Assembly (NCBI GenBank): GCA_036493895.1
Contig: DASXOZ010000011.1
Span: 626-64,625, forward strand
Direction: 5' to 3'
Source: Candidatus Binatia bacterium
Lineage (GTDB): Bacteria > Desulfobacterota > Binatia > UBA1149 > CAITLU01
Length of the DNA: 64,000 bases
A model generated the notes under the pieces. That model saw only the letters and a program-made list of their open reading frames with translations. It was not told the origin of the DNA and ran no database searches. This document shows, in pieces, positions 22,517 to 49,672 of the stretch (the stretch's first letter is position 1; every line of letters begins with the position of its first letter). The translations under genes and the position numbers were made by a program.

Positions 22517-23200
22517 ATGACAGCCGTCAAGAAACCCAAGCGCATCCGCCGCACCGCCGAGGAGGCCAAGAGCATCATCCTCGATGCGGCCGAGAAGAGG
22601 CTTGGACAGTACGGGCCTGCCGGCATCAAGCTGCAGGAGCTGGCGGCCGACGTCGGCGTTTCGCATCCGGCGATCCTGCATCACTTCGGCAGCCGCGACG
22701 GCCTCGTCGAGGCCGTCGTGAGACGCGCTCTCGACACGCTTCGCGAAGCGGTGCTCGACGAAGTGCGCCAGCAGATGACGCGCGAAGTGGACATTCCGTC
22801 GATCCTCGACGCCGTGTTCGGCATTCTCGCCGAGCGCGGGCATGCGCGCCTGGTGGCGTGGCTCATTCTCGAAGGCACCAACGCGCGCGACGACAGCCGC
22901 CTGATGCGCGCGCTGGCCGAAGCGGCGCACGTGCGCATGGTGAGCGGCGGGTGGACCAAGGGTCGTCGCTTCGAGTTCGAAGACATGCTCTTCGTCGTGA
23001 TGATGGTCGGCGCGGCGGCGCTCGGCACCGGCGTCGTCGGCGAAGCGATGCGGTTCAGCTCGGGACTGGAGGCGGACGAAGGCGCCGAGGGGCGCTTCCG
23101 GCACTGGTTCAGCGCGCTGCTGTCGCGCTACCTGGCGGCGCAGGGGGAGTTCGCGCCGGCGACGGCGCGCAAGAAGGAAGAATCGGACGCGGCCAGCTGA
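22517..23200 (+). CDS. TetR/AcrR family transcriptional regulator
   Basis: IILDAAEKRL...LQELAADVGVSHPAILHHFGSRDGL N-terminal HTH. Confidence 0.9.
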   Translation: MTAVKKPKRIRRTAEEAKSIILDAAEKRLGQYGPAGIKLQELAADVGVSHPAILHHFGSRDGLVEAVVRRALDTLREAVLDEVRQQMTREVDIPSILDAVFGILAERGHARLVAWLILEGTNARDDSRLMRALAEAAHVRMVSGGWTKGRRFEFEDMLFVVMMVGAAALGTGVVGEAMRFSSGLEADEGAEGRFRHWFSALLSRYLAAQGEFAPATARKKEESDAAS

Positions 23201-23599: not shown

Positions 23600-24529
23600 C
23601 TACTTGATTGCCAGGGGGTTGATCGGGGAGCCGATGCCGCCGGTGACTCGCAGGGGCGGCGCGGTCAGCAGGAAATCCCAGCACCCGTCGGCTTCGCAGT
23701 CGCGGGCGAGCTCGTCGAGTTCGAACATCTCGCCGAACGGCATTCCCATGTCGCGGATGCACAGCAGGTGAAGCGGATACAGGAGCGAAGGATCCTCGCA
23801 CGGCATCACTTCGACGGCGGTCGTGTCGGAGCAGACCGCGGCAAGATCGCGCTCACGGATCCATTCGGCGGCGTCGAGGCCGAGACCGGGGCCCTGCCAG
23901 AGGTAAGTTTCGCGGTCCCCGTCCTTCGTGAACACCGAAAGGTGACCGGTGCGAAGCACGAGGATGTCGCCGGGCAGAAGCCGGCAGCCCTGGGCGGCAA
24001 GCGCGTCGTCGAGCTCCGAGGGGCGGATCGCAGTGCCGGGCGCGATGCGTTCGACGCCGCGATGGCGGGCCAGGTCGACGAGCACTCCGCGTGAGACGAT
24101 GCCTGGCGACGCAAGCTTGTCGATGCCGTTGCGCGTGGCGCCGCCGGCGCCGAGGTGCTCGCCGGCCGCATAGCCGTTGTAGAGCTTCCCGTCGTAGTGC
24201 ACGTGCGCGAGGCTGTCCCACTGCGTGGACGATTGCAGCGGCAGCGACAGCACGTCGTCCGAGTAGCAGAAGCCGCGCGGGTCTTCGCCGATCAGCGTGC
24301 CGATCGCGGTCATGTAGTGCTGGGGATTGAAGCGGCCGATTACCGATCCGGTCTGCGGCCCTTCGGGCCCGAGCGAGAGGCCGAGACTGAAGACGTCCCC
24401 GCGCCGCACGCACGCCACCGCGCGCCGGACGACCTCGGGCGTGATCAGGTTGAGCGTGCCGCGCTCGTCGTCGGCACCCCAACGCCCCCAGTTCGAAACC
24501 TTCCCCGCAATATCCCGGACTCTTTTCAT
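23600..24529 (-). CDS. Cyclase family protein (kynurenine formamidase-like metal hydrolase)
   Basis: SNWGRWGADDERGTLN, STQWDSLAHV, GIVSRGVLVDL, GDILVLRTG, GEMFELDELA, GIGSPINPLAIK. Confidence 0.9.
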   Translation of the reverse strand: MKRVRDIAGKVSNWGRWGADDERGTLNLITPEVVRRAVACVRRGDVFSLGLSLGPEGPQTGSVIGRFNPQHYMTAIGTLIGEDPRGFCYSDDVLSLPLQSSTQWDSLAHVHYDGKLYNGYAAGEHLGAGGATRNGIDKLASPGIVSRGVLVDLARHRGVERIAPGTAIRPSELDDALAAQGCRLLPGDILVLRTGHLSVFTKDGDRETYLWQGPGLGLDAAEWIRERDLAAVCSDTTAVEVMPCEDPSLLYPLHLLCIRDMGMPFGEMFELDELARDCEADGCWDFLLTAPPLRVTGGIGSPINPLAIK

Positions 24530-24581: not shown

Positions 24582-25820
24582 CTAGTAGTGGAACTCCGGA
24601 AGCACCTTGGTGACGAACAGCTCGAGCTGCTCGGCCTGCACGTCCATCGGCACCGTGCCCTGGTAGAAGAAGTTCCACGAGATCCACTCGAGGTCTCCAT
24701 CGCCGTGGCACTTGACCAGTGCGGCAAGCTGCTTCTTGACGTCGTCGATGGTGCCGCAGAGCTGGTAGCCGCGGTCGATCATCCTCTGCGTCGCCGCGTG
24801 CTCGTCCTTGAACTTCAGCGGCATGATCGCCTTGTCGTCGTCTGGAGTGCGGAACACTTCGCCGAAACCGAACAGGTTGAAATAGTGGTGGTACTCGTAC
24901 CCGGTCGTGCGCGCGGCCAGCTCGAAGGCCTCTTCGCGCGTCTTGCCGATCGTGATCGCGCGCACGGCACCGAGCCTCTGCCCGAGCTTCAGGTCGTGGC
25001 CCGCCTTGGCCGCTTCGCTCTGGTAGAGCTTCGCCCACTTCTGGAAGCCCTGCGGCGAAGCTTCGAAGATCCACGGGAGGATCCCGCGACGGGCGCAGTC
25101 GATCAGTGATTTTTCCGACAGAGTAAACGGCGCCCAGATCGGAGGATGAGGGTGCTGGTACGGCCTCGGCACGACGCCGATCTTGCGAATCACGCCGTTG
25201 TCGTCGATCTCGCCGGGCGCTCCGTACTTGCGCGTCCACTCCGGAGCCGCCCAGCCGTCGATTCCGGAGAAAGGGAAGGGAACCTTGTAGTGTTGCCCGT
25301 CGTACGAGAAGCAGTCCTCGGTCCAGGCCTTCTGCACGATCTCGAGCTTCTCGTCGTACACGTCGCGGTTGGCGGCGTCGCCCTTGTCGCCCATGCCGGT
25401 CGCCGACTCGGCACCTTGGCCTAGCACTTTCATCCACTTCTTCTGGTAGCCACGCGCGAACGCGACCGCGACGCGGCCCTTGGTGAGCTGGTCGAGGATC
25501 GCGATGTCTTCGGCAACGCGGATCGGATCGGCCGTCGGCAGCACCACCGACATCGGCGCGAATGTAATTTGCTTGGTGCGCGCCGCGAAGTCCGCGTACA
25601 GCAGCACCGGGTTGACCGAGACCTCGCCGCCTTCGGTGTGGAAGTGGTGCTCGGTGGTCGAGAACGCGTCGACGCCGAGCTCGTCGGCGTGGATGACCAG
25701 GCGTCGCAGCTCCTCGAGCATCATCTGGTAGCGCTCGGTGTTGCGCCCGATCGGCCGCAGCGAGCTGCGCTCCTCGTTGGTGGACGGAATGGTGGGCATC
25801 GCGAACAGGTCGAGCTTCAA
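24582..25820 (-). CDS. LLM-class flavin-dependent oxidoreductase (luciferase-like monooxygenase)
   Basis: TTG start with GAGGAG SD; FSTTEHHFH, DPIRVAEDIAILDQLTKGRV, PRPYQHPHPPIW. Confidence 0.9.
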   Translation of the reverse strand: MKLDLFAMPTIPSTNEERSSLRPIGRNTERYQMMLEELRRLVIHADELGVDAFSTTEHHFHTEGGEVSVNPVLLYADFAARTKQITFAPMSVVLPTADPIRVAEDIAILDQLTKGRVAVAFARGYQKKWMKVLGQGAESATGMGDKGDAANRDVYDEKLEIVQKAWTEDCFSYDGQHYKVPFPFSGIDGWAAPEWTRKYGAPGEIDDNGVIRKIGVVPRPYQHPHPPIWAPFTLSEKSLIDCARRGILPWIFEASPQGFQKWAKLYQSEAAKAGHDLKLGQRLGAVRAITIGKTREEAFELAARTTGYEYHHYFNLFGFGEVFRTPDDDKAIMPLKFKDEHAATQRMIDRGYQLCGTIDDVKKQLAALVKCHGDGDLEWISWNFFYQGTVPMDVQAEQLELFVTKVLPEFHY

Positions 25821-25884: not shown

Positions 25885-25898
25885 TGGAACGTGTTCTA
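25885..25898. promoter_or_regulatory. KstR-like palindromic operator, site B
   Basis: TGGAACGTGTTCTA, a full match to TnnAACnnGTTnnA, 65-78 bp upstream of the LLM start at 25820. Confidence 0.7.
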
Positions 25899-27953: not shown

Positions 27954-29068
27954 CCGCCCTGGATGAGCTGCACGGCGCTGCGTGCCGTCGCGCGAGCTTC
28001 GGGGGCGATGGCAAGCGGCTTTACCGCGTCGATGTTGACCGCCTGCAGGTCGTAGTACGAAATCGCGTCCCAGTGCTGCTCGGCCATCGCGCGCGCCTCT
28101 TCGCCCGGGCCGTGCACGGAGCCGCGCGGATGCACCATGAAGGTGGCGCGCAGCATCGGCGCTCCCATCATCGTGCCGTCGTGCAGGAACCCGATCTCGT
28201 CGTAGTCCATGTTGCGGTGGTAGTACGGAAGCCGCGCGGTACCGCGCTCCATCTCCGCCGGCCGCGGCACGAAGTTGCAGATCACCCAGCCCGTTCCCTG
28301 GAACAACGCGAACGCCGTCGGCGGCACGTGGTTGCGGTCGCTCACCACCGCGCGGAAGTCGAGGTTGTGGAAACGGAACGGAAACAGGTCTCCCTTCCAG
28401 CCGACGACGTCGAGAGGATGGTGCGCGTAGAAGAACGACGTGAACGCGCCGCAGCGCTTGACGCGCACTTCGTATTCGGCGCGGCCGTCGTTGGCGTAGG
28501 CCGTGGGCTCAGGGATGCCGAGAACGGTCGGATCGTAGGGGTTGTGGCGCCCGAGCAGCGTGTGCTCGGCCAGCGTCACCTCGCCGCTGCTTTCCAGATG
28601 CAGGAAGTAGTTGTCGCGGGTCGACGGAACGACTCGAAAAGTGACACCCTTCGGGAGCACGATGTAGTCGCCGGGCTTGAAATCCAGGGGTCCGAACTCG
28701 GTTTCGACCACGCCTTCGCCGCGGTGGGTGAACCAGATCTCATCGCCGTCGGCATTGCGGTACCAGTACGGCATCGGCTCGCTGCGGCGGCTCACCGAGA
28801 TCACCAGGTCGTCGTTGTAGAAACAGCGCGTGGGGCGCCCGCGCGAGTCGCTGCGATCGTCGGCGTCGATCTTCTGGCCGTCCAGGTCCAGCGGCGCGAA
28901 ATCGCCCTCGACCCGGGTCCACGCCGTCGGCTCGTTGCGGCGGTACATTTCGGCCACTCGGCCCTGGAAGCCTCCGCGCCCGATCTCCTCTTCCTTCAGG
29001 CCCGACGGAACCCGCACGTGGGCCTGCTTCGGAACTTCGCCCTTGCTCAGGTGGATCCAGGACTTCAC
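27950..29068 (-). CDS. hmgA: Homogentisate 1,2-dioxygenase-like cupin dioxygenase
   Basis: YRNADGDEIWF, HHPLDVVGWKGD, PYYHRNMDYDE and VHGP (His/Glu/His iron ligands). GTG start at 29068 is coupled to the NTF2 gene stop. Confidence 0.75.
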   Translation of the reverse strand: MKSWIHLSKGEVPKQAHVRVPSGLKEEEIGRGGFQGRVAEMYRRNEPTAWTRVEGDFAPLDLDGQKIDADDRSDSRGRPTRCFYNDDLVISVSRRSEPMPYWYRNADGDEIWFTHRGEGVVETEFGPLDFKPGDYIVLPKGVTFRVVPSTRDNYFLHLESSGEVTLAEHTLLGRHNPYDPTVLGIPEPTAYANDGRAEYEVRVKRCGAFTSFFYAHHPLDVVGWKGDLFPFRFHNLDFRAVVSDRNHVPPTAFALFQGTGWVICNFVPRPAEMERGTARLPYYHRNMDYDEIGFLHDGTMMGAPMLRATFMVHPRGSVHGPGEEARAMAEQHWDAISYYDLQAVNIDAVKPLAIAPEARATARSAVQLIQGG

Positions 29069-29487
29069 GAGAACAGGGTCCTTTGTGCGTAGAGCGTGTC
29101 CACGTACTCCTTGACGCCTGCGATCTTGCGATCCGCTTCGCCCGGGCCGCCGCGAACCTCGAACAGGAAATGGTAGAAGTTCGAGTAGTCGGCGCCTTTG
29201 GCGGTCGTCGCGCAGATGTGCACTTCGACGGCGACCTTGTGCTCGTCGGCGACCATGCCGAGGATCTCGATTTTCATCGGCTTGGGCGCATACAGCGACA
29301 CGCCCTTGGCGAACATGCCGAGCACGGCGTCCTTTCCTTTGTAAGTACCGGCCATCGGCGACGAAGGCGGCACCCACCAGGTGACGTCGTCGGCGAAGGC
29401 GGCGACGACCTTGTCGCTGGCTCCGCTGGAGACCGCGTCGAAATAATCGCGGATCAGCTTCTTGTTCGCTTCGGGGGTGGATGCCAT
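29065..29487 (-). CDS. NTF2/SnoaL-like (ketosteroid isomerase-like) protein
   Basis: NKKLIRDYFDAV, FADDVTWWVPP, YSNFYHFLFEV, KEYVDT. Confidence 0.85.
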   Translation of the reverse strand: MASTPEANKKLIRDYFDAVSSGASDKVVAAFADDVTWWVPPSSPMAGTYKGKDAVLGMFAKGVSLYAPKPMKIEILGMVADEHKVAVEVHICATTAKGADYSNFYHFLFEVRGGPGEADRKIAGVKEYVDTLYAQRTLFS

Positions 29488-36669: not shown

Positions 36670-37302
36670 TCAGCTTCCGGCGCTGGTCTCGGCGATCGGC
36701 GCCGGCGAATGCGTGTAGATCCGGTCTCCCTGGTTGGAGCCGTCGGCGTTGGCGCAGTTTCCGGCGGCGAAGAACCCGATGCGGCCGATCCTGGCGGCCG
36801 GCGCTTTCCAATCGAACGTCCATGACGTGCCGCCGGTCTGGCCGATCGCCGTGCCTCCGTAGTTGTGCTCGATGTAGGACCGCGTCCCCATCGCCGCCGG
36901 GAGCACCTGCGTCGTCGCACCGTCGGACGAGAATTCGCCGGCGCCCGAGCCGTCGCTCATCGCGATCGCCGTCATCTGGAAGCCCCAGCGCAGCACTTTC
37001 GCATCCTTGTGCGCCAGGTGCACCGTCAGCGTGTACGTCTTGCCGGGCTCGTACTTCGGCGGCACCCCGTCGATGGTGATCGAGCCGTCGCCGTCAGGGT
37101 TGGCGGGGAACTGGTTGTGGCACTGGATGCACAGGCTCTCGGCGGCCTGGCCGGCGATTGCGGGCGCACCCGTCACCGCCGGCTGAGGACCGGCCGAGGC
37201 GGCGAACGTGTTGCTCGCTCGCAGCACCAGCATGGATGCGACCAGCAGTGCAATGCGTGCGGCGCGCGCGCTCCGCCGGCCGGCGAGCCGGGCATCAGCC
37301 AT
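36670..37302 (-). CDS. Secreted Reeler / choice-of-anchor-V-like protein with a CxxCH motif
   Basis: Signal-like N-terminus; TGAP...CIQCH, YEPGKTYTLTV, WGFQMTA, SWTFDWKAP, FFAAGNCAN. Confidence 0.7.
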   Translation of the reverse strand: MADARLAGRRSARAARIALLVASMLVLRASNTFAASAGPQPAVTGAPAIAGQAAESLCIQCHNQFPANPDGDGSITIDGVPPKYEPGKTYTLTVHLAHKDAKVLRWGFQMTAIAMSDGSGAGEFSSDGATTQVLPAAMGTRSYIEHNYGGTAIGQTGGTSWTFDWKAPAARIGRIGFFAAGNCANADGSNQGDRIYTHSPAPIAETSAGS

Positions 37303-37948
37303 TCGGATGCTCCGCAAAGCCCCGCAGCCATGCGGTCACTCCGCCAGCGAGATCCGCGACGCCGACCACGCGCGCGTCGCGCTGTTCGAGAATCGACGCG
37401 CTGCGGTCGCGCGCGTGAACGGTGACATCGTCGATGACGAAGTCGATGCCGGCAAGACTCTCCAGCGGCATGTCCCATCCGTCTACGTTTGCAATGGCCC
37501 CGCGGCGCGCGATCACCGCGAGCAGCCGCGGCGGCGCGAACAGCGCAAGCGTCGTCGAGAGCACGCCGCCTTGCCCGTCGCCGCCGAGCACGAACGGGCG
37601 CTCGAGCGCGAGGACGAAATTTTCGACCTCGCCGATCGCATCGGCGAAGCTCGCCGCTTCGGGCCGCTCGTGATCGTCGCCGAGGTACCACGAAAATCCG
37701 GCGTAGGAATCCGACGAGCGAAGGTTGCTCTGCATCGGGTTGCAGGGACGCGCGGCCTGCAGCGCGAAGATGTCCGGCTCGCTTCCAGCCAGGGTGCGCG
37801 CGTCGCCAAGTCCGCCGCCGGCGTCGCCGCCGCGCGCATGCAGCCAGACGACGACCGGAAGAAGGTCACCGGCGCTTCCCGCCGAGTGGGAGCGAAGGAG
37901 CGAGCAGTCCGGCGCAGGGCCGGAAGTCGGGCGCCCTGGCGGGTTCAG
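37295..37948 (-). CDS. Phospholipase/carboxylesterase-like alpha/beta hydrolase homolog lacking the catalytic Ser; probable CTG start
   Basis: VVWLHARGGD, GFSWY and FVLGGDGQGG (canonical GFSQGG). There is no ATG/GTG/TTG in frame after the upstream stop, but CTG at 37948-37946 overlaps that TGA with AAGGA upstream. Confidence 0.6.
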   Translation of the reverse strand: MNPPGRPTSGPAPDCSLLRSHSAGSAGDLLPVVVWLHARGGDAGGGLGDARTLAGSEPDIFALQAARPCNPMQSNLRSSDSYAGFSWYLGDDHERPEAASFADAIGEVENFVLALERPFVLGGDGQGGVLSTTLALFAPPRLLAVIARRGAIANVDGWDMPLESLAGIDFVIDDVTVHARDRSASILEQRDARVVGVADLAGGVTAWLRGFAEHPNG

Positions 37949-39741
37949 TCGATTTCCTTGACCGGCGCGGCCGCCGCGCCCTTTCCTGCGAGCATCGCGA
38001 ACGTGATCGCCGGTCCGAGGGTGCCGCCGCCGCCGTAGTAGTACTGGCCGGTCGGCGACGCGATGCAGTTGCCGGCACCGTACAGGCCCGCGATCGGCTC
38101 GCCGTCGGCGCCGAGCACCTGCGCGCTCGCGCTGGTCGCCGGACCGCCGTTGGTGTCGAGCGTCCCGGCCGCAAGGATGATCGCGTACAGGTGACCGGTC
38201 GGGTCGATCGGATGCATCGTCGGATTGAGCGTCTGGCCGATTGCCTGCGAGGTGCCCTGGTTCGGATACGACCAGACGTGCGAGAACCAGAGGCGGTCGT
38301 AGAGTTTCTCGCCGCGATGGAAGTCGACGTCGATGCCGTGGCCGGCAAACTCGTTGTAGCGCTTGAAGGTCGTCGACAGCGTTGCGGCGAACCCTTCGTC
38401 GAGCCGTACGCCGCCGGTCTTCGGCGCGAGCCTCAGCAGACGCTGGTCGATCGCGTCGGCCAGCTCCTGGGGGTTGGCACCGGTGATCACGTACGGTGCC
38501 TGGGTTCCGGCCGGCGGGATCGGGAAACGTCCGCCGAACAACTCGGCGCTGCGCTGGTCGTAAACCATCAGCATCAGCATGTTCGGCCATTCGTGCCGCG
38601 AAGGATCCCACGCAAAATGCACGCGCGTGCGCTCGTTGTAGTTCGAGCATTCGTTGACGACGCGGCGCCCGTAGCGGTTGACGAGGACCATCGAGTCGCC
38701 CGGCGGCATGAAGACGTCGTCGGGAGTGCTCGAGAACTGCAGCGCCTGCTCGAGCACGATCTCGGCGCGCCACGCCGAGCTCATGTTGCCGAGGCGCGCT
38801 CCTGCGGCGGTGGCCATGTAGACGAAGTCGCCTTCGTTGGTCGGCACCGCGCAGCCGCCGAAGATCGGTCCGGGCTGGAACGCCGTGGTCAGCTCGCGAT
38901 TCTGCGTGAAGCCGCCGCTTCCGAACACGACGCCTTTTTTGGCGCGAAGCCGCACGATCGTCTTGTCGATCTTTTCCGCCTCGATGCCGACGACCTCGCC
39001 GGCGTGGTTGCGAAGGATCGTCACGACACGGTGGCCCATCAGCGTCGCGATCTTGCGCGAGTCGATCGCGGCCCTGAGCTGGCGGACCATCTCGTCGCCG
39101 AGCCCGAACGAGCCGTCGGGTTTTTTCGCCCACAGGCGCCGGTCCACCGGCGTGATGTCGTCGACGGCTTCTTCGAAGTAATCGGGCATCGCGCCGAACG
39201 GCGGCATGTCGGCCGGCTGCGAGATCAGCGCTTTCATGTTCTCGAGCTCGTCGACGACGACGGGGCCGTTGTCGTAGAGGGCTTTGAGAAGGTCGTACTG
39301 GAGCTGGGAGAGGCCGAGCGTCTTGTCGTCGGCGCGAAAGAGCTGGGGATACGAAAAGCGCGCCATCTTCGCGATCGTCTTGTCGCGAGGCTCTTCGACG
39401 CCGCGCTCGCGCAGGAAGCGGTTGTTCGGGATCCAGTAGACTCCGCCGGACTTCGACGTCGTGCCGCCGAACAGCAGGGCCTTCTCGACGAGGGCCACCG
39501 ACGCACCGGCCTCGTGCGCGAACAGCGCCGCGACCGATCCCGCCGCGCCGCTGCCGACGACGACGACGTCCACTTCCTGGTCGAACTTGAGCTTGTCGGC
39601 GGCGCGGGCCTCGCGCACGCCCGGCAGCGTAGCGGCGCCGGCACCGGCGGCGGCCACGCCCGCGAGCCTCAGAAAGTCACGGCGAGAAATTCCCGGACGC
39701 GCCGGCGGCGCGCCCCCTGCTGCGGAGCTGTCGTCGTTCAC
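37945..39741 (-). CDS. Tat-exported FAD-dependent oxidoreductase, 3-ketosteroid-delta1-dehydrogenase (KstD)-like
   Basis: SRRDFLRLAG twin-arginine signal; DVVVVGSGAAG, GGTTSKSGGVYWIPNN, VNRYGRRVVNE, GTLDTNGG, GLYGAGN, GGTLGPAITF. Confidence 0.85.
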   Translation of the reverse strand: MNDDSSAAGGAPPARPGISRRDFLRLAGVAAAGAGAATLPGVREARAADKLKFDQEVDVVVVGSGAAGSVAALFAHEAGASVALVEKALLFGGTTSKSGGVYWIPNNRFLRERGVEEPRDKTIAKMARFSYPQLFRADDKTLGLSQLQYDLLKALYDNGPVVVDELENMKALISQPADMPPFGAMPDYFEEAVDDITPVDRRLWAKKPDGSFGLGDEMVRQLRAAIDSRKIATLMGHRVVTILRNHAGEVVGIEAEKIDKTIVRLRAKKGVVFGSGGFTQNRELTTAFQPGPIFGGCAVPTNEGDFVYMATAAGARLGNMSSAWRAEIVLEQALQFSSTPDDVFMPPGDSMVLVNRYGRRVVNECSNYNERTRVHFAWDPSRHEWPNMLMLMVYDQRSAELFGGRFPIPPAGTQAPYVITGANPQELADAIDQRLLRLAPKTGGVRLDEGFAATLSTTFKRYNEFAGHGIDVDFHRGEKLYDRLWFSHVWSYPNQGTSQAIGQTLNPTMHPIDPTGHLYAIILAAGTLDTNGGPATSASAQVLGADGEPIAGLYGAGNCIASPTGQYYYGGGGTLGPAITFAMLAGKGAAAAPVKEID

Positions 39742-39750
39742 GCGCCGATC

Positions 39751-40722
39751 TCAGGCTGCAGCGGCGGCGCCGGTCGGCGCCGAGTAGAACTGCCGCGTCC
39801 ACTGGCGGTACTCCCCGATCGGGCCGTCGGATTCGCAAAGGGCCGGCCGCGCCTGGAATCCCTTGTGTTCCCAGATCTGGAAGTCCTGCTGGATCGCCAG
39901 CGACTGGTCGTCCATGTACAGCTTGAGCAGCGCGCGCGTCTCGTCTTCGCTGCGGCCGTCCTTCTTGCCGATCACGCCGAAATGGATGCGCGTGATCTCG
40001 TCGTCGACCGGCGTGAGCCCTGCGACGATCACCGTCGTGAACATCCCGGAGTAGATCAGCCAGTCGAACCCGAGCCCCCAGTTCTGCGCCTGGATGTTGA
40101 AGTCGTCGCTGACGCCGCCCATCGTCTGCACGTCCTTGCGCGTCCAGATCGCCCACTTGAACATGTGCTGGTGGAATTCGTGGGAGCGATTCTTCGGCGC
40201 GTCCATCAGGTGCACGAAGTTGAAGTGGGGCCAGTCGATCGCGTTCTCCATGATGTCCTGGGGATGCGTGCGGACGTCCCAGGAGTATTTGTCGTAGCTG
40301 GAGGTCCAGTCGTCGGCGCCGAAGTACTCGATCGCCGGGATCTCGAAATCGGGCGCCGCGCCTTCGGCGTGGTACCAGACGAACACGAGCCCGCTGTGCT
40401 CGAGCACCGGGTAGGCGCCGGCGCGCGCCTTGGCGGGAATCTTGTCGGTGTACGGGATGTGGCGGCAGGTGCCGCCGGTATCGAACTGCCAGCTGTGGAA
40501 GGGACAGACGAGGCGGTTGCCTTCGACTTTTCCGCCATACCCGAAGTGGGCGCCGAGGTGAGGGCAGAACGGCTCGAAGGCCCCGGCTTTTCCGTCTTCG
40601 CCGCGGAACAGCACGATGTCGCGGCCGAGGTAGTGGACGGTCTTCACTTCGCCTTTGGCAAGCTCGTCCGAATAGCAGACCTGGTACCAGCTGTTGGGGA
40701 TGCCGAACGGAAATCGGGCCAT
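39751..40722 (-). CDS. Rieske non-heme iron oxygenase, KshA/sterol-oxygenase-like
   Basis: CPHLGAH...CPFHSW Rieske motif and ENAIDWPHFNFVH mononuclear iron motif; starts MARFPFGIPNSWY. Confidence 0.88.
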   Translation of the reverse strand: MARFPFGIPNSWYQVCYSDELAKGEVKTVHYLGRDIVLFRGEDGKAGAFEPFCPHLGAHFGYGGKVEGNRLVCPFHSWQFDTGGTCRHIPYTDKIPAKARAGAYPVLEHSGLVFVWYHAEGAAPDFEIPAIEYFGADDWTSSYDKYSWDVRTHPQDIMENAIDWPHFNFVHLMDAPKNRSHEFHQHMFKWAIWTRKDVQTMGGVSDDFNIQAQNWGLGFDWLIYSGMFTTVIVAGLTPVDDEITRIHFGVIGKKDGRSEDETRALLKLYMDDQSLAIQQDFQIWEHKGFQARPALCESDGPIGEYRQWTRQFYSAPTGAAAAA

Positions 40723-40826: not shown

Positions 40827-40840
40827 TAGAACGTGTTCCA
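40827..40840. promoter_or_regulatory. KstR-like palindromic operator, site D (divergent promoter)
   Basis: TAGAACGTGTTCCA, a full match to TnnAACnnGTTnnA, between the Rieske gene and the SDR-crotonase-MFS operon. Confidence 0.72.
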
Positions 40841-40992
40841 GTGCCCGTGCAAGGGGCGGGCGGCGCGGCTACCATGCGGCGCGCAGCCGCCGACGGGGCG
40901 GGGGCAGGCCGGGGGACCGGCCGGCGGCGGATCTGGCAATGAAACCGGGACGAGCGGGACAAGCAGACCAAGAGGGACAAGGAGGAGAGGCG

Positions 40993-41778
40993 ATGACAGC
41001 GCGTCGGTGCCTGGAGGGAAAAGTCGCGGTGGTTACCGGTGCCGGGTCCGGCATCGGAAGGGCCACGGCCCTGCGCTTCGCGCGCGAAGGCGCCGCGGTC
41101 GTCGTCGGCGACCTGCAGGCAGCGAGCGCCGAAGCTGCGGCGGCGGAGATCGTCGCATCGGGGGGCCTTGCGGTGGCGCGCACCGTGGACGTCGCGGTCT
41201 CCGCCGAAGTCGATGCCCTGATCGACGATGCCGTCAGCCACTTCGGGCGCATCGACATCCTGATGAACAACGCGGCCGCCCCCCATGGTGCGCCGATCCT
41301 GGCAACTACCGATGCCGACTGGCGCCGCGTGATGTCGGTAACGCTCGACGGAGTCTTCTTCGGGCTTCGCGCGGCACTCGGGCGCATGACTGCCCAGCGC
41401 TCGGGCAGCATCCTCAACATTTCGTCGGGAGCGGGTCTCGGCGGCGAGGTGATGCTCGGTGCCTACGGCGCGGCCAAGGCCGCCGTGATCAACCTGACCA
41501 AGACCGCTGCCGTCGAGAACGCCGGTTACGGCGTGCGCATCAACTGCATCTGCCCCGGGCCGATCTCGACGCCGCCGCTGCATGCATGGCTCGGTGCGAT
41601 TCCGGGCGGGGTCGACGCGTTCTCGCGACAGATTCCCGCACGTCGCATCGGCGAGCCGGAGGAGATCGCTGCAGTCGCGACGTTCCTCGCCAGCGACGAA
41701 GCCTCTTACGTGACCGGCGCCGTCGTTGTCGTCGACGGCGGGGTGAATGCCCGGACGGGGACGCCGCGGTTCGACTAG
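40993..41778 (+). CDS. SDR family oxidoreductase
   Basis: LEGKVAVVTGAGSGIG, MNNAA, YGAAK, NCICPGPI. GGAGGAG SD before ATG 40993. Confidence 0.92.
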   Translation: MTARRCLEGKVAVVTGAGSGIGRATALRFAREGAAVVVGDLQAASAEAAAAEIVASGGLAVARTVDVAVSAEVDALIDDAVSHFGRIDILMNNAAAPHGAPILATTDADWRRVMSVTLDGVFFGLRAALGRMTAQRSGSILNISSGAGLGGEVMLGAYGAAKAAVINLTKTAAVENAGYGVRINCICPGPISTPPLHAWLGAIPGGVDAFSRQIPARRIGEPEEIAAVATFLASDEASYVTGAVVVVDGGVNARTGTPRFD

Positions 41779-41808: not shown

Positions 41809-42603
41809 ATGGGATACGACGACATCCTCGTGGAGAACTCCGGCGGCATCGCGTGGGTCACGATCAATCGCGAAGCCAAGGGCAACGCATTCCGCGTGCA
41901 GACCGTGCGCGAGCTGATCGACGCGCTCGAGCAGGCCCGCCGGGACGCCGACGTGCGCAGCATCGTGCTGACGGGCGCGGGAACCCGCTTCTTCTGCATC
42001 GGCGGCGACCACGATCACGGCGGTGAGGCGGATCACGACGACCGCATCCACTACGGCAACGTCTTCCCCGTCACCGACCTCTACGACCTGATCGACAAGG
42101 TGCCGAAACCCATCGTCGCGATGGTCGCCGGTTTCGCCGTCGGAGGCGGCAACGTGCTCGCGCTGATGTGCGATCTGACGATCGCGTCCACTGCGGCGAC
42201 CTTCCGCCAGGTCGGGCCGATGATGGGCAGCTTCGATGCCGGCTTCGGCACCTGGTACCTCGAGGAAGCCGTCGGCCGCAAGAAGGCGAAAGAGATCTGG
42301 ATGCTCAATCGCAAGTACGCAGCGGCCGAGGCGCTCGCGATGGGGCTCATCAACGAAGTCGTCGAGCCCGAAAAGCTTCGCGCGCGAGTCGTCGAGATCT
42401 GCGAGGAGCTGGCCGATCGCGGGCCCCAGGCGCTGGCAGCGATCAAGGCCTCGTTCCACGCGCGCCACGGCGGTGTTGCCGGCCTTTCGCGCGTCGCGCT
42501 CGACCTGCTGACGCCGAACTACTACCGCAGCGACGAGAGCAGGGAGCTCGGCCGCGCCTTCGGCGCAAAGCAGAAGCCGGATCGAAAGAAGTTCTACCGA
42601 TGA
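41809..42603 (+). CDS. Crotonase-family enzyme of the MenB/BadI (ring C-C forming or cleaving) type
   Basis: FFCIGGD, GFAVGGGNVL, FRQVGPMMGSFDAGFG, VGRKKAKEIWML. Confidence 0.82.
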   Translation: MGYDDILVENSGGIAWVTINREAKGNAFRVQTVRELIDALEQARRDADVRSIVLTGAGTRFFCIGGDHDHGGEADHDDRIHYGNVFPVTDLYDLIDKVPKPIVAMVAGFAVGGGNVLALMCDLTIASTAATFRQVGPMMGSFDAGFGTWYLEEAVGRKKAKEIWMLNRKYAAAEALAMGLINEVVEPEKLRARVVEICEELADRGPQALAAIKASFHARHGGVAGLSRVALDLLTPNYYRSDESRELGRAFGAKQKPDRKKFYR

Positions 42604-43829
42604 CGCGCGCCGGCTGGCGCGGCGGGCCCGGCTTCGTGCTGCTGACGCTGACGCTGGTCAACACCGTCAACTGGGCCGACCGCCAGGTCGTCCCGATCCT
42701 GGTTCCCGCGATCAAGGCCGATCTTGCCCTCACCGATACCCAGCTCGGCCTCGTCGGCGGCCTGGCCTTTTCGCTGATCTACGCGCTGTCGGCGTTTCTC
42801 TTCGGATTTCTCGCCGACCGGAGCAGCCGCCGCCGCGTCATCCTGTTCGGGCTGGTGTGCTGGAGCGTGGCGACCGCTGCCGGCGCTTTCGCGCACGACT
42901 TCTGGTCCTTGTTCGCTGCGCGCTTCGTCACGGGAATCGGCGAGGCTTCGCTGTATCCCTGCGCGATGTCGCTGCTCACCGATGCGTTCCCCACCGAGCG
43001 TCAGGGGAATGCGATCGGAATGTTCGGTGCTTCCACGGCGGTCGGCAGCGGCCTCGGGATCGGGCTCGGCGGCCCGCTGGTCGCCCACCTCGGCTGGCGC
43101 AGCGTCTTTCTTCTTTACGGAGGCGCGGGCCTGCTCGTGCTTCCGCTGCTGCTGATGATGGAGGAGCCGGCGCGAAGCGGCAGCGAAGTCGCGCTGGCGC
43201 ACGATCCTCCCGTTTCGATCATCCGCGGCGCTCTCGGCGACGTCCGTCTGCTGGCCGTCTGGCTGACCGGAACCCTGCTGATTGCAGCGGCGACGGGATG
43301 GATCACGTGGGCGCCGACGTATTTCGTCCGCGATCTCCAGTTCGACGTCGGAAGCGTCGCGGGGATCTTCGGCATCGCGCAGCTTTTCGGCGGTGTGGCC
43401 GGCAGCATTGCCGGGGGCCGCCTCGGCGACCGTTATCGCAAGCGGCGCGTGGCCGGACAGCTGTCGGTCGCCGCGCTCGCGTCGCTGGCGGCCGTGCCGC
43501 TGTTCGGCGTCGCGCTTCTCGACGTTCCGCACCCGCTGCTGATGACGTGCGCCGTTCTCGGGCCTTTCGCGATCTTCGCGGCTTTTCCGAGCCTGCAAAG
43601 CCAGGTCGCCGAGATCGTCCCGGCGCGCCGCCGTGGGCTCGTCTTCGCAGTGCACGTGTTTTTTCTGAGCGGAATCGGCGCCGCGCTCGGGCCTTTCCTC
43701 GTAGGATTTCTCTCGGACCGCACCGGGAGCCTGCGCGCCGCGCTGCTTGCGCCGCTGCTCGGCGTGCTTCTTGCCTCGCTGAGCGCGATGTTCGCCGCGC
43801 GCGTCGTCAGGGCGCGTACACCGTCGTGA
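42600..43829 (+). CDS. MFS transporter (spinster-like)
   Basis: VNWADRQVVPIL, GFLADRSSRRR, ARFVTGIGEA; about 12 hydrophobic segments; ATGA overlap. Confidence 0.9.
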   Translation: MTRAGWRGGPGFVLLTLTLVNTVNWADRQVVPILVPAIKADLALTDTQLGLVGGLAFSLIYALSAFLFGFLADRSSRRRVILFGLVCWSVATAAGAFAHDFWSLFAARFVTGIGEASLYPCAMSLLTDAFPTERQGNAIGMFGASTAVGSGLGIGLGGPLVAHLGWRSVFLLYGGAGLLVLPLLLMMEEPARSGSEVALAHDPPVSIIRGALGDVRLLAVWLTGTLLIAAATGWITWAPTYFVRDLQFDVGSVAGIFGIAQLFGGVAGSIAGGRLGDRYRKRRVAGQLSVAALASLAAVPLFGVALLDVPHPLLMTCAVLGPFAIFAAFPSLQSQVAEIVPARRRGLVFAVHVFFLSGIGAALGPFLVGFLSDRTGSLRAALLAPLLGVLLASLSAMFAARVVRARTPS

Positions 43830-45418
43830 GCCTCGACCCGCTGCATCCGCCGAAGACCTCGGGTGCTGGCACGGCGCCGGTATCGTGGGCCGCGCAGGTC
43901 GCGGTTCCCCGCTACCTGACGCTGCGCGAAGGACACCGGCCCATCATCGTCGTCGCGCCGCACGGCGGGCGCAGGCTTCGCCCGATCCGGCGCGGTGACA
44001 GCGTCAACGATCTCTACACCGCCGAGATGGCCGCGCACCTGGCCGAGCGCCTGGGCGCGCACGCGATCATCAACGGCGGCCTCGATCGCAACGAGATCGA
44101 CCTCAACCGGATTTCCCATCTTGCCGCGAAGGCGCCCGAGGTGCTCGCGCTGCTTTTGACTGCGATCGATGCGGCGGGCGCCGGCGGCGAGGTCCCCTTG
44201 GTGCTGTTCGTGCACGGCTGGAACATGGTTCTTGCCTGCTGCGACGTCGGCGTCGGCCTTCGGCGTCGGGGCCCGCGGCTTTCCGGACGGCATCCGACGC
44301 TCTCGCGCGGCCGCTTCGAAGGAACGATCGCCGATCTCGAACACGAAATGGCTGCGCGCCAGCTGACGGCGTCGATCGGGCGGCGCTATGCGGCCAGTGG
44401 TCGCGACAACGCTGCCCAGCTCTTCAGCGGCCGTCATCACGACCATGAGGATGCGCTGGTTGCGCGCCTGGCGCGTCTTTCGCTCGGCGGCCGCGTCGAT
44501 GCGGCGCAGCTCGAGCTGGGCATTGCGCTGCGCTGGCCGGGTTGGAGGCGCGACGCCTGCATCGACGCGATAGTGGCTGCGCTCGAGCCGCGCGCCGGGT
44601 CGGGCCGCTTGCCGGTGGCTCCGGCGCGAAACTGGCTGGAGGCACCGATCGGCGAAGAAGAACCCGCGGCGCCGCTCGAGCGCGGGTTTTCGCTGCAGGC
44701 CGTGCTGCAGCGCGATGGCAGCGCAGCGCTGTTCTGCGGCGTCGAGGCGACGTCGGCCCATTCGATGGCGGCGCGCTTCTGCTTCGTGTTCGCCGACGGG
44801 ACGATGATGCTGCTCGTCGGCGAAGGGGACTGGGACGGGCGCGCGGGTCACTACTCGCTCGAAGGCGCGTCGTGGGTTTCGTCCCCGGACGCCGGTCGCA
44901 TCCGCATTTCGATTCGCGCTCCCTTCATCCGTTACCCGACGCACGACGCTTACCTCGACCTGGAAGCGGGACTGTCTCGTGCCGAGCTGGTCGACGCGCA
45001 GGTGGAGCTTTCGTACGAGGCGAGCGCGGAAAAGCACGGAAGGCTCCACGGGCATGTCGTCTTCGACGGGCGCCGCATGGACATCGGCGCCGTCGCATTC
45101 ACCGATCGCGGCGGACGTCGCGGCGGCGATGCCTCGCGGGTGCGCGTGTTCGCCGCGGCGGCAGACGAGACGATGATCGTGGCGGTCCGCGACGACACGC
45201 TCGAGATCTGCGACGCGGAAGACGGGACGGCCGTCATCCGCACGATCCCGGAGCTCGCGGCGCCGCTGCGGGAGGCCCGCATCATCGCGCGAGTGCCGGT
45301 CTGGCGTCCTCTCGGCGAAGGTCGTTTCGCGCGCTGGACCTTCGGCATCGCGCAGTGCCGCCTCGGTGCCGGCGACGAGTGGGTGGCCGGGCTCTTCGAT
45401 TCCCTCGAGATATTCTGA
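43826..45418 (+). CDS. Hypothetical protein with an N-formylglutamate amidohydrolase-like N-terminal domain and an unassigned C-terminal half
   Basis: IIVVAPHGG, RNEIDLNR and LFVHGW resemble FGase-type Zn-hydrolase motifs; GTGA overlap with the MFS stop. Confidence 0.55.
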   Translation: MSLDPLHPPKTSGAGTAPVSWAAQVAVPRYLTLREGHRPIIVVAPHGGRRLRPIRRGDSVNDLYTAEMAAHLAERLGAHAIINGGLDRNEIDLNRISHLAAKAPEVLALLLTAIDAAGAGGEVPLVLFVHGWNMVLACCDVGVGLRRRGPRLSGRHPTLSRGRFEGTIADLEHEMAARQLTASIGRRYAASGRDNAAQLFSGRHHDHEDALVARLARLSLGGRVDAAQLELGIALRWPGWRRDACIDAIVAALEPRAGSGRLPVAPARNWLEAPIGEEEPAAPLERGFSLQAVLQRDGSAALFCGVEATSAHSMAARFCFVFADGTMMLLVGEGDWDGRAGHYSLEGASWVSSPDAGRIRISIRAPFIRYPTHDAYLDLEAGLSRAELVDAQVELSYEASAEKHGRLHGHVVFDGRRMDIGAVAFTDRGGRRGGDASRVRVFAAAADETMIVAVRDDTLEICDAEDGTAVIRTIPELAAPLREARIIARVPVWRPLGEGRFARWTFGIAQCRLGAGDEWVAGLFDSLEIF

Positions 45419-48085: not shown

Positions 48086-49672
48086 TCAGGCTTTCGCCCG
48101 CTTCGGCGCGTCGTCCTCCTCGATCTCCCGCACGCTGATGCGGCCGGCAGCGTTGGTGCACACGCCGTCGCCGAGCGAGAAACGCCAGTGGTGGCCCGGG
48201 CAGACGATCTGCCCGCCTTCGACTTCGGCCTCCGAAAGATCCGAGCCTCCGTGCGGGCACCAGCGCTGCACTTCGTAGCGGCGCCCTTCGTGCTCGAGCA
48301 CGAACGTGTCGTGCGCGCGGTCGGCGGTCTCGACTTTCTGGATCGCGGCAAGGGCCCTGGAGTCGGACATTTTGAACAGCGTGAACAGGTGCTGGTTGTA
48401 GCGGTCGGGATCGCGGTGCGCCTTGAAGCGAAGCGACAGGAACGCGTCCTCCCAGCCGAGCTCCTCGCGCATCACCTGGTCGATCAGCGTCGAGGTCATT
48501 TCGAACTCGTACTGGCAAGGCTCGCCGTCCCAGGCGTAGACCAGCTCCGCTTTCGGCTCGGGGCGGAAGTCGACGACCCAGTCGCCGCCGTGCGCCCCGG
48601 TCACGCGAAACAGCACGCGGATGCCGATGTGCTCGACGAAATACGGATGACCCTTGAGAAACGGCAGGAAATGCCGGCGAAAGCGCTCGAACAGGCCCGG
48701 CGAAGCCGGCGTGATCGCGGCGAGCACGTCGGCGACGACGCGCTCTTTTTCGGCGCGGTGGCGCGCGTAGTACGCGCCGCGGTCGCGTTCGTAGTCGAAT
48801 CCTTCGTACGCGGGGTCGCGTTCCAGACGGAACTCGCCGGCGGTGCCGCGCGCGCCGATATTCAGCCGGTCGCCGGGATTCATCACCATGCCCGGGATCG
48901 TCGACTCGCCCGCAAGGCGCCCGGCCGCCACCGGCGGCGTCGGGAACATGCTGGCTTCGCCGAAGAAAAACGGAGCCAGCTCCGGATCGAAGAAGCAGGG
49001 CGGTCCCGCGAACGGAATCGCCAGTCGCGGCTGCAGGGCCTTTGCCGCGGTTACGAACGACGCGATCGCCGATTCGCGGCGCTGGGCGGCGAGAAGTCGC
49101 TTGGTCGCTTCGTCGTACGTCGTGTAGACGAGCGGATACCAGATGGCCGGCGTGGCCTGCGCGAACAGCACGTCGATTCCCTCGGCGCGGATGTCGGCCA
49201 CCGGCAGCGCGAGGTTGCAGTCGTTCAGGTTGAAGATCTTGTGGCCGTCCACCTCGATCAGTGCGCAGGAGTCGAACCAGTGCGGAGGGCAGTGGAAAGT
49301 CGGCGTCGAGATCTTGACGGTGAACCCCGGCGCGACCTCGAATGGCTCGAAGTTGTCCAGCTCGACGATGGTACGAAAGCCGAGACGCCGCAGGCGCGAG
49401 ACGAGGCGCTTCTTGTGCGCGCGTCCCGTCAGCACCGGCACGCTGCGATCGATGCGCCCGAGGAACTCGGGGTCGTAGTGGTCGGGATGCTCGTGGGAAA
49501 TGTAGAGCACGTCCGGCGACGACAGCGCTTCCAGATTGCCCTCGTACTGCGGGTACTGGAACCAGCTCGCGTTGTAGGATCCCTTGCGCGACATCCACGG
49601 GTCGCAGACCAGCAGCTTGCCGCCGTGGCGAAGAGCCAGGCCGCTGTGTCCGATGAATTCGATGCTCGTCAT
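48086..49672 (-). CDS. namH: MBL-fold plus C-terminal Rieske hydroxylase, NamH (Rv3818)/CMAH-like
   Basis: GHSG, CDPW, ASWF, LYISHEHPDHYDP, FNLND, AIWYPLVY, AGPPCFFDPEL, FLSLRFKAHR, QRWCPH...CPGHHW. The motif order matches my recollection of mycobacterial NamH; the symbol denotes homology, not proven function. Confidence 0.75.
   Translation of the reverse strand: MTSIEFIGHSGLALRHGGKLLVCDPWMSRKGSYNASWFQYPQYEGNLEALSSPDVLYISHEHPDHYDPEFLGRIDRSVPVLTGRAHKKRLVSRLRRLGFRTIVELDNFEPFEVAPGFTVKISTPTFHCPPHWFDSCALIEVDGHKIFNLNDCNLALPVADIRAEGIDVLFAQATPAIWYPLVYTTYDEATKRLLAAQRRESAIASFVTAAKALQPRLAIPFAGPPCFFDPELAPFFFGEASMFPTPPVAAGRLAGESTIPGMVMNPGDRLNIGARGTAGEFRLERDPAYEGFDYERDRGAYYARHRAEKERVVADVLAAITPASPGLFERFRRHFLPFLKGHPYFVEHIGIRVLFRVTGAHGGDWVVDFRPEPKAELVYAWDGEPCQYEFEMTSTLIDQVMREELGWEDAFLSLRFKAHRDPDRYNQHLFTLFKMSDSRALAAIQKVETADRAHDTFVLEHEGRRYEVQRWCPHGGSDLSEAEVEGGQIVCPGHHWRFSLGDGVCTNAAGRISVREIEEDDAPKRAKA

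Follow-up and report, generated by a model that had tools for sequence, protein, structure and literature searches.

The stretch of DNA examined here, referred to throughout as the window, comprises 64,000 nucleotides of contig DASXOZ010000011.1 from a Candidatus Binatia bacterium and has a G+C content of approximately 67-68%. Its minus strand carries, from position 40722 down to 36670, four tightly coupled genes that encode a Rieske oxygenase, a flavoprotein, an esterase-like open reading frame (ORF) and a protein with a CxxCH motif and a Reeler fold (Table 1). An initial annotation, made from the sequence alone, had described four packed or overlapping minus-strand genes behind a KstR-like site and had proposed that they form a periplasmic steroid-type oxidation module. 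Each of these elements was found in its place, and the observation is confirmed; its interpretation is partly supported. Co-conservation was found as well: the four genes are kept together with a divergent short-chain dehydrogenase (SDR) gene and an operator across genomes labelled Binatia and Myxococcota. A periplasm can be assumed in the host because the window encodes the diderm housekeeping proteins TamA, TamB, an Omp85-family protein and MdoG.

Table 1. Genes and operator sites discussed in the text, with their positions in the window
Feature	Position	Strand	Basis
Rieske non-heme-iron oxygenase, KshA-like, predicted cytoplasmic	39751..40722	-	Pfam Rieske and KshA_C
Tat-exported FAD-dependent alicyclic-ketone alpha,beta-desaturase, cyclohexanone dehydrogenase (CDH) class (flavoprotein)	37945..39741	-	CDH match, catalytic residues, signal
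Pseudo-esterase, alpha/beta-hydrolase fold without catalytic Ser or signal peptide; start uncertain	~37295..37948	-	AlphaFold2, Foldseek
Secreted Reeler-fold/choice-of-anchor V protein with CIQCH; putative mono-heme c-type cytochrome	36670..37302	-	NCBIfam, AlphaFold2, Foldseek
KstR-box-like palindromic operator TAGAACGTGTTCCA	40827..40840	.	Spacer between Rieske operon and divergent SDR operon
Divergent SDR, probable start ATG near 40993	40939..41778	+	Pfam adh_short_C2 1e-63
MenB/BadI-subfamily crotonase, candidate ring-opening beta-ketoacyl-CoA hydrolase	41809..42603	+	Pfam ECH_1, NCBIfam
MFS transporter	42600..43829	+	L001/L004 orthologues with Pfam MFS_1, 62-67% identical
Conserved 530-aa protein beside transporter	43826..45418	+	44-56% identity in Binatia loci
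Second operator copy TGGAACGTGTTCTA	25885..25898	.	Head of luciferase-like monooxygenase operon
Luciferase-like flavin monooxygenase	24582..25820	-	Pfam Bac_luciferase 7e-36
TetR-family regulator, candidate palindrome binder	22517..23200	+	Pfam TetR_N 1.7e-11

The flavoprotein gene starts with a GTG at 39741, 9 nt past the stop codon of the Rieske gene. Its product contains an FAD_binding_2 domain (Pfam, 6.5e-50), and its best solved relatives are the cyclohexanone dehydrogenase (CDH) structures 8AM3, 8AM6 and 8AM8 in the PDB (E 1e-122, 42% identity, 414 bits), to which it can be aligned over the full length (residues 12-593 vs. CDH 25-595). AcmB (E 1.8e-37, 133 bits) and KstD1 (2.9e-31, 112 bits) are much more distant, the flavocytochrome fumarate reductases follow at about 1e-19 (E 1e-19 to 1e-14 for the FccA/UrdA range), and the KstD equivalog models of NCBIfam were all missed (PRK12844, 229 bits vs. 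a cut-off of 789; PRK07843, 213 vs. 788). The catalytic residues of CDH are Tyr195, Tyr376, Tyr570 and Gly574 (PMC10966990), which correspond to Y188, Y368, Y568 and G572 of the flavoprotein in invariant alignment columns. The label “KstD-like” given in the initial annotation is thus appropriate as far as the chemistry is concerned, since the Tyr/Tyr/Tyr/Gly tetrad is kept, but the protein is not a KstD proper, CDH being far closer. A fumarate or urocanate reductase was also considered as its identity and was set aside as the leading interpretation because of the level of similarity (E 1e-19 or weaker) and the catalytic residues. With this exported desaturase, the known CDH class gains a further, new member; the novelty of the locus lies in its two companions, the pseudo-esterase and the Reeler-fold protein.

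The aromatic gate of CDH, which is formed by Trp113, Tyr415 and Phe496 and shuts over a small substrate, is not kept in this flavoprotein: Val101 takes the place of Trp113, the Tyr415 loop is missing, and Phe496 is replaced by Trp485, which is followed by a 9-residue insertion. The Val at the Trp113 position recurs in three aligned Binatia-type orthologues (L001, L003, L004). In CDH, the mutation W113A opened the active site to bulkier substrates, and activity on dihydrocoumarin was gained (PMC10966990). By analogy with this mutant, the Val gate suggests a substrate that is probably bulkier than cyclohexanone.

The N-terminus of the flavoprotein (...ISRRDFLRLAGVAAAGAGAATLPGVREARA/AD) is a canonical twin-arginine signal, as had been recognized before. 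It reads SRRDFLRLAGVAAAGAGAA...ARA/AD, in which an S/T-R-R-x-F-L-K-type motif is combined with a hydrophobic core and a cleavage site of the AxA type; the Pfam TAT_signal model scores below its cut-off (18.1 vs. 22.7 bits), and the SRRDFLR motif is kept in the orthologues. The Tat motif was found in all Binatia, Myxococcota, gammaproteobacterial and Methylibium relatives and, not in every betaproteobacterial relative, but in most of them; the actinobacterial relatives (Conexibacter, Streptomyces, Rhodococcus) are without it. The initial annotation had stated that characterised KstDs are generally cytoplasmic or associated with the inner membrane. This fails for the CDH class: CDH's own sequence carries the twin-arginine signal SRRGFLR, aligned with SRRDFLR, and judged by these motifs Tat export is therefore a trait of the Gram-negative branch of the class and no oddity of this locus. 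The Tat signal of the Myxococcota orthologues (L012-L026) ends in a lipobox-like ...A-[AS]-[AG]-C-A; unlike the soluble Binatia form, these proteins may be Tat-exported lipoproteins.

Neither Pfam nor NCBIfam yielded a family match for the esterase-like ORF that comes next, and its fold is known from structure prediction alone (AlphaFold2 model with pLDDT 88.8 and pTM 0.87). With Foldseek, this model was matched to Abhydrolase_2 carboxylesterases and acyl-protein thioesterases (2H1I, 4H0C and APT1/2; E ~1e-7, TM ~0.6-0.7), with values of E 7e-8 and TM 0.68-0.72 for 2H1I. The nucleophile elbow, located between the strand 119-124 and the helix 126-135, reads G123-D-G125-Q-G127 and has no Ser. 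In approximately 50 homologues and in all related loci, the elbow position is occupied by Gly, Glu, Arg or Cys, never by Ser, and no conserved triad His was found among the homologues. As the nucleophile is absent throughout the family, we do not file the protein as an esterase but as a pseudoenzyme. The expression “dead esterase” used in the initial annotation is apt on both counts, the carboxylesterase fold being real and the Ser lacking in every lineage.

The start of the pseudo-esterase gene deserves a separate comment. From the flavoprotein stop up to an internal ATG at 37735, the frame contains no ATG, GTG or TTG. Public gene callers consequently predict a stump of only 146 aa for the window (P0059), as they do for a relative with 78% identity (P0060). 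The 70 codons upstream of the internal ATG keep every family-invariant residue. A CTG is left as the sole candidate start; it overlaps the flavoprotein stop (CTGA) and coincides in position with the GTGA start of the Myxococcota genes. From these two features we infer a coupled, non-canonical CTG start rather than a pseudogene.

With a profile search, the pseudo-esterase gene was detected immediately after the flavoprotein gene, with the GTGA/CTGA overlap, in 22 of 22 distinct informative loci, i.e. loci under three taxon labels in which the downstream DNA is present and the flavoprotein is at least 48% identical. In a gammaproteobacterial metagenome-assembled genome (MAG; L027), a pseudo-esterase with the elbow G-Q-G-Q-G follows the flavoprotein gene, and the Rieske and Reeler genes are missing. 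The profile did not match anything in the betaproteobacterial and actinobacterial loci, and a broadened profile, used in a further homology search, brought in no members from outside the same clade. It is thus the pseudo-esterase, and not the Reeler protein, that is the invariant companion of this flavoprotein clade. In two Myxococcota loci (L024, 3998-5905; L026, 10697-12685), its frame continues without a stop into a cytoplasmic SnoaL/NTF2-like domain; a related, free-standing SnoaL-like gene is present in the window at 29065-29487. Elsewhere, pseudo-esterase and Reeler protein form a single ORF (L012-L014 and the protein clusters P0043, P0056, P0109, P0111 and P0112), in which the pseudo-esterase lies upstream of the Reeler signal sequence and the AxA cleavage site is retained. 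Assembly artefacts were ruled out as a source of these fusions, because the two parts share a single open frame in three independent MAGs, in one case on a contig of 3.2 Mb, as well as in five protein clusters. Based on the SnoaL-like run-on and on its position in the Reeler fusions, we place the pseudo-esterase in the cytoplasm.

The last gene of the operon encodes a Reeler-fold protein of 210 aa, the ATG of which overlaps the stop codon of the pseudo-esterase (ATGGCTGA). It had been described as secreted and as carrying CIQCH, and we found both the motif and a Sec-type signal, which ends ...NTFA/ASAGPQP. The NCBIfam model choice_anch_V (NF041895) matches with 95.4 bits against a cut-off of 42; the Pfam model Reeler reaches 18.2 bits, below its cut-off of 21, and matches 39 of 55 homologues. 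A sequence search against the PDB gave nothing meaningful. In the Foldseek search with the AlphaFold2 model (pLDDT 88.6), the top eight hits were all F-spondin reeler domains, followed by cohesins and the copper protein YcnI.

C63, C66 and H67 of this protein are invariant in 58 close homologues. An exhaustive profile search for the family yielded 6,974 cluster representatives (clustering at 50% identity) with E <= 1e-3 and 4,256 with E <= 1e-10; the spacing of Cys and His was counted in the best 147 of these family representatives. The second Cys and the His, i.e. the Cys-His dyad, are present in 147 of 147, and the distance to the first Cys varies (CX2CH in 125, CX4CH in 14, CX3CH in four, CX5CH and CX9CH in one each, and a single Cys in two). 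Spacing variants are known from established heme-c sites, namely CX3CH and CX4CH in cytochromes c3, CX15CH in MccA and single-Cys sites in euglenozoans, and the combination of an invariant dyad with a variable first Cys mirrors this variation. The domain almost always follows an N-terminal signal in the 147 representatives, and the residues x-S-x-G-P after the cleavage site are kept family-wide, which places the CxxCH at approximately residues 24-28 of the mature protein. Three family members carry the automatic JGI name cytochrome c. The reading of the motif as a heme-c-like site, which had been proposed for this one protein, is therefore matched by its behaviour across a very large family. 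Covalent heme on the Reeler protein appears likely to us on these grounds, and the family-wide behaviour of the motif looks like that of an undescribed kind of c-type cytochrome. The domain is also a widely reused N-terminal module: in P0120, P0122, P0123 and others it is fused N-terminally to FG-GAP/VCBS-type repeats, T9SS sorting tails and other modules, in proteins of up to 1,155 aa. A literature search on choice-of-anchor domains and on reeler with heme or CXXCH gave nothing relevant, and no published function of choice-of-anchor V was found.

In the eight Binatia-type loci with enough sequence, the Reeler gene adjoins the cluster, and in L020, L023, L025 and L026 it is located ~6 kb upstream, still in the same supercluster. 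Overall, linkage of the Reeler gene to the cluster was counted in 14 loci. The linkage is real and is strengthened by the fusions to the pseudo-esterase, yet it is lineage-restricted and not obligatory. Three Binatia-type loci (L001, L003, L004; ~8750-10480) contain a gene for a PAS-HisKA sensor kinase between the Reeler and NAD kinase genes; in the window this gene is missing, and the Reeler and NAD kinase genes are convergent with their stops 16 nt apart.

At the head of the operon, the Rieske gene starts with an ATG at 40722 behind GGAGG. Its product matches the Pfam families Rieske (1.3e-24) and KshA_C (5.2e-41, 141 bits), and the closest solved structure is KshA (4QDC; E 2.2e-39, 139 bits), with which the CxH...CxxH cluster ligands and the His-His-Asp iron ligands all align; SdmA, SxtT and NdmA are matched at a comparable family level. 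The gene immediately precedes that of the flavoprotein in all Binatia and Myxococcota loci (59-89% identity). Several of the Streptomyces and Rhodococcus loci, in which the flavoprotein homologue is cytoplasmic, also carry a distant Rieske gene ~1.2 kb upstream of this homologue, so that the pairing of both enzyme types seems old. No signal peptide was found in the Rieske protein, which implies that the module is divided between cytoplasm and periplasm. The proposal of a periplasmic module fits the flavoprotein and the Reeler protein, both of which carry export signals, but does not extend to the oxygenase. A KshB-type reductase had been reported as missing from the window, and we agree: a scan of the coding frames, limited to the motif, found the plant-type [2Fe-2S] motif in none of them. 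Reductases of this type are often unlinked, and their absence hence carries little weight.

The genes around the operon were used to narrow down its substrate. The SDR gene is divergent from the Rieske gene in all related loci, and its product matches ChcB-type hydroxycyclohexanecarboxylate dehydrogenase models below their cut-offs. The crotonase scores 285 bits with the NCBIfam model for DHNA-CoA synthase and 260 bits with that for BadI 2-ketocyclohexanecarboxyl-CoA hydrolase, both below the equivalog cut-offs. For the 530-aa protein beside the transporter, no family match was obtained in Pfam or NCBIfam. CoA ligases are also encoded in the window. Several kinds of genes that are scattered here adjoin the core of Rieske, flavoprotein and pseudo-esterase genes in Myxococcota, among them those for a CoA ligase, an amidohydrolase, an SDR, luciferase-like monooxygenases, an HgmA-like dioxygenase and a glyoxalase-fold protein. 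Taken together, the BadI/MenB-type crotonase, the SDRs, the CoA ligases and the luciferase-like monooxygenases indicate, as far as gene content can, the catabolism of an alicyclic ketone or acid; a steroid is not established. Three further observations on the window are recorded here. In a 528-aa Rv3818-like protein (48086-49672, minus strand), a metallo-beta-lactamase fold is joined by an SCP2-like domain and, at the C-terminus, by a Rieske domain. Very large Cys-rich ORFs were called on the minus strand at 4572-12314 and 12904-15477, large overlapping ORFs are present on the plus strand as well, and the gene calls of this region (4.5-20 kb) are tentative. An 857-aa ORF of this region contains DUF11 and disintegrin-like repeats.

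The palindrome in the spacer between the Rieske and SDR genes fits the pattern TnnAACnnGTTnnA, that of the KstR box of Mycobacterium, and the KstR-like site of the initial annotation is in this sense genuine. This pattern occurs three times in the window where 0.14 occurrences are expected, and no shuffled sequence reached three. The SDR-Rieske spacers of 22 further loci (23 with the window) all contain the core TG[A/G]AAC[A/G][C/T]GTTCTA without change, between variable flanks, and in this alignment the palindrome is a clear phylogenetic footprint. A near-identical second box overlaps the upstream end of the luciferase-like monooxygenase gene; a Pfam ‘Cyclase’ gene comes after it (23600-24529). 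An orthologue of the monooxygenase (62-67% identity) is encoded ~3.5 kb downstream of the flavoprotein/pseudo-esterase pair in the Myxococcota loci L012-L026, and due to this linkage and the match of the two boxes, both most likely belong to a single regulon. The third match (TGGAACCCGTTCGA, 55445-55458) is located inside a TamB-like gene and is probably due to chance. The TetR-family protein was not matched by KstR-specific models, its best hits being of the BetI/RutR type and far below the cut-offs, and its gene was not found near related clusters. A scan for promoters and terminators and a search for inverted repeats in the operon and spacer found nothing.

These data bear on the proposal that the locus encodes a steroid ring-opening pair, in which a KshA-type 9-alpha-hydroxylase and a KstD-type delta-1-dehydrogenase act on 3-ketosteroids and the dehydrogenase has been moved to the periplasm. 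The KshA_C domain of the Rieske protein and its best solved relative, the KstD catalytic tetrad of the flavoprotein, the fit of the operator to the KstR box pattern and the open Val gate, which would admit large substrates, are all compatible with it; in addition, one CoA ligase matches the model of steroid-24-oyl-CoA synthetase, albeit below the cut-off. However, the flavoprotein falls well short of all KstD equivalog cut-offs and is much nearer to CDH, the similarity of the Rieske protein to KshA is modest and the protein is ~65 residues shorter, the crotonase is of the BadI/MenB type and not an EchA20, and the window genes scanned included no steroid-core gene that could be recognised as Hsa, Ipd, FadE or KshB. 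We therefore consider a steroid pair improbable. The substrate named in the initial annotation is not upheld: nothing shows a steroid, and the context points to an alicyclic ketone or acid.

Our preferred interpretation is that of a catabolic module for an alicyclic ketone, under the control of a TetR-type regulator and split across the inner membrane of a diderm bacterium, and we would give it an even chance of being correct. The gene anatomy, folds, catalytic residues, signals, motif conservation and synteny on which it builds are established; the substrate, the heme attachment, the path of the electrons and the role of the pseudo-esterase are what we infer from them. The flavoprotein would fold with its FAD in the cytoplasm and would then be exported by the Tat system. 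In the periplasm it would carry out the KstD/CDH reaction, in which a tyrosine base takes the alpha-proton and the beta-hydride is transferred to FAD, so that a cyclic ketone is converted to the alpha,beta-enone. The reduced flavin would be re-oxidised by the Sec-exported Reeler-fold protein by means of one c-type heme on CIQCH near the processed N-terminus, and this protein would pass the electrons on to the respiratory chain. The pseudo-esterase, with its translation coupled to that of the flavoprotein, may serve as a non-catalytic cytoplasmic accessory, be it as an escort, a scaffold or a ligand binder. Once the MFS transporter has taken up the compound, the KshA-like oxygenase would attack the same carbon skeleton in the cytoplasm, with an unlinked reductase, and the SDR, the BadI/MenB-type crotonase, the CoA ligase and the luciferase-like monooxygenases would finish ring opening.

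A number of points weigh against this interpretation. The Rieske enzyme and the flavoprotein are predicted to reside in different compartments, and the pseudo-esterase gene of the window is without a canonical start codon. Most of the related loci are common by descent, many of them with long synteny (NAD kinase, DsbA-like, SDR, transglycosylase), so that the co-occurrence counts do not represent independent events. No experiment shows heme on any member of the Reeler family, and the Reeler beta-sandwich is no known cytochrome fold; Pfam families of the Cytochrom_C type matched none of 55 members, and Paired_CXXCH_1 matched six of them weakly (E >= 0.09). Across the family there is no strictly conserved Met or His as the sixth (distal) ligand, the best candidate being the His of a Y-x-x-H motif (His in 81%, Gln in 18%; the Tyr residues in 95-97%). 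The Reeler gene is missing within 10 kb in L015 and L018 and from such flanks of L016 and L024 as are available, and none of the gammaproteobacterial, betaproteobacterial or actinobacterial relatives has it. Near these Reeler-less flavoprotein genes, a search for another CxxCH gene in its place gave nothing but one spurious antisense ORF. Since the gene can be absent without replacement, its product cannot be an obligatory partner of this enzyme class, and the heme-bearing partner proposed earlier is not a general companion. Finally, a distant family member from Bacteroidota (P0058) occurs in a copper-resistance context. In two Bacteroidota loci (L005, L006), a distant choice-of-anchor V protein with CTACH is encoded between HMA-domain and multicopper oxidase genes, beside CusA/B-like efflux genes.

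Alternatively, the Reeler protein may be no redox partner at all but a general periplasmic binder of a metal (e.g. copper via Cys-Cys-His), of a hydrophobic substrate or of the cell surface, kept in the cluster by shared ancestry. The size of the family, its fusion to many unrelated domains such as FG-GAP repeats and T9SS tails, the distant member among CusA/B, HMA and multicopper oxidase genes, the structural relationship to the copper protein YcnI and the loci in which the gene is missing without replacement would all fit a binding function. Still, an invariant Cys-His dyad with a variably spaced first Cys is the signature of heme c, and Sec-exported CxxCH proteins are likely substrates of the cytochrome c maturation machinery. 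Moreover, the Reeler gene remains in the same catabolic supercluster even when displaced by 6 kb, and several lineages have it in one frame with the gene of the pseudo-esterase, the flavoprotein's constant companion. On balance, we regard a mere binding function as unlikely. That the Reeler protein directly accepts the electrons of the flavoprotein is a proposal to which we give somewhat less than an even chance.

The direction of electron flow could also be the reverse, from the quinol pool through a Reeler cytochrome to the flavoprotein, which would then be a periplasmic enone reductase comparable to the flavocytochrome fumarate and urocanate reductases. FccA and UrdA share the FAD_binding_2 fold and, like the flavoprotein, are periplasmic and cytochrome-linked, and KstD-type reactions are chemically reversible. 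Against this, the Tyr/Tyr/Tyr/Gly residues are those of a dehydrogenase, the context of oxygenases, CoA ligases and a ring hydrolase is catabolic and not respiratory, and the presence of Rieske and luciferase-like oxygenases in one regulon implies an aerobic metabolism. We consider a reductase very improbable and retain the alicyclic-ketone module with electron flow away from the flavin. A bolder version of the module is that the choice-of-anchor V/Reeler domain represents a new structural class of c-type cytochrome which, together with the pseudo-esterase, forms a dedicated electron outlet for a Tat-exported ring desaturase; this we put forward tentatively, as rather doubtful. In its extreme form, the electrons would be handed back to the Rieske oxygenase; the lack of a reductase would then be accounted for, and the pair would be self-sufficient.

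If the Reeler protein does bind heme, a fold not yet linked to c-type heme would become an electron-carrier fold, and thousands of surface and periplasmic proteins from many phyla, now annotated as ‘hypothetical’ or ‘choice-of-anchor V’, would be candidate electron carriers. In eukaryotic ferric-chelate reductase 1, a reeler domain stands next to DOMON and cytochrome b561, and heme binding would provide a redox rationale for this arrangement. To our knowledge, the physiological acceptor of CDH- and KstD-type desaturases is poorly defined. In the CDH study, activity was assayed with the artificial dye DCPIP only (PMC10966990). The Reeler protein is a candidate for the natural acceptor of CDH-type enzymes, which would serve both physiology and biocatalysis. 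In addition, the dead esterase, strictly co-inherited and encoded beside a Tat substrate, is a candidate for a hitherto unstudied class of accessory proteins, and the flavoprotein with its Val gate, as a natural analogue of the engineered CDH W113A, offers an experimental handle.

Among known systems, CDH of Alicycliphilus denitrificans K601 (PMC10966990) is closest to the flavoprotein, with which it shares the FAD_binding_2 architecture, a full-length alignment, the catalytic residues and the twin-arginine signal; the two differ in the gate W113/Y415/F496. The betaproteobacterial CDH-like relatives L029, L031 and L040, unlike the present locus, have no pseudo-esterase, Reeler or Rieske gene nearby. 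KstD1 (4C3X) and AcmB (7P18) have the fold, the proposed mechanism, the tyrosine base and the Gly amide in common with the flavoprotein, but match it far more weakly (E 1e-31 to 1e-37) and with partial coverage in two stretches. The Rieske protein resembles KshA (4QDC, 2ZYL) in its Rieske and KshA_C domains and in the ligands of the cluster and the mononuclear iron; it differs by the modest degree of similarity (139 bits), by its length (323 aa vs. ~390 aa) and by the lack of a KshB-type reductase nearby. The pseudo-esterase shares the alpha/beta-hydrolase fold and the LHxxGGD and WY/WF loops with the Abhydrolase_2 carboxylesterases and acyl-protein thioesterases, but its family is without the nucleophile Ser, and in some lineages the protein is truncated or fused to other domains.

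For the Reeler protein, the F-spondin reeler domains (3COO, 2ZOT) are the structural counterparts (Foldseek probability 1.0, TM ~0.6 on the target), although the bacterial domain has an N-terminal extension with the invariant Cys...Cys-His that the animal domain does not possess. Cytochrome f is a c-type cytochrome with a beta-sandwich, in which the CxxCH is located ~21-25 residues from the processed N-terminus and the alpha-amino group ligates the heme. The Reeler protein resembles it in the beta-sandwich and in the position of the CxxCH near the processed N-terminus, and its own N-terminal amine is a possible axial ligand. This likeness is an analogy only, and no cytochrome f structure was among the top 50 of the 71 Foldseek matches (E <= 0.001) to the Reeler model. 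The module as a whole can be compared to the two-component periplasmic flavoprotein-cytochrome c dehydrogenases, e.g. p-cresol methylhydroxylase PchCF and flavocytochrome c sulfide dehydrogenase, in which the gene of an exported flavin dehydrogenase is likewise accompanied by that of a c-type cytochrome dedicated to it as the outlet for single electrons. The cytochromes of the PchCF type are all-alpha class I proteins, whereas the candidate here is a beta-sandwich Reeler domain; and unlike those systems, the present set includes a conserved pseudo-esterase and a partner that is dispensable in some lineages.

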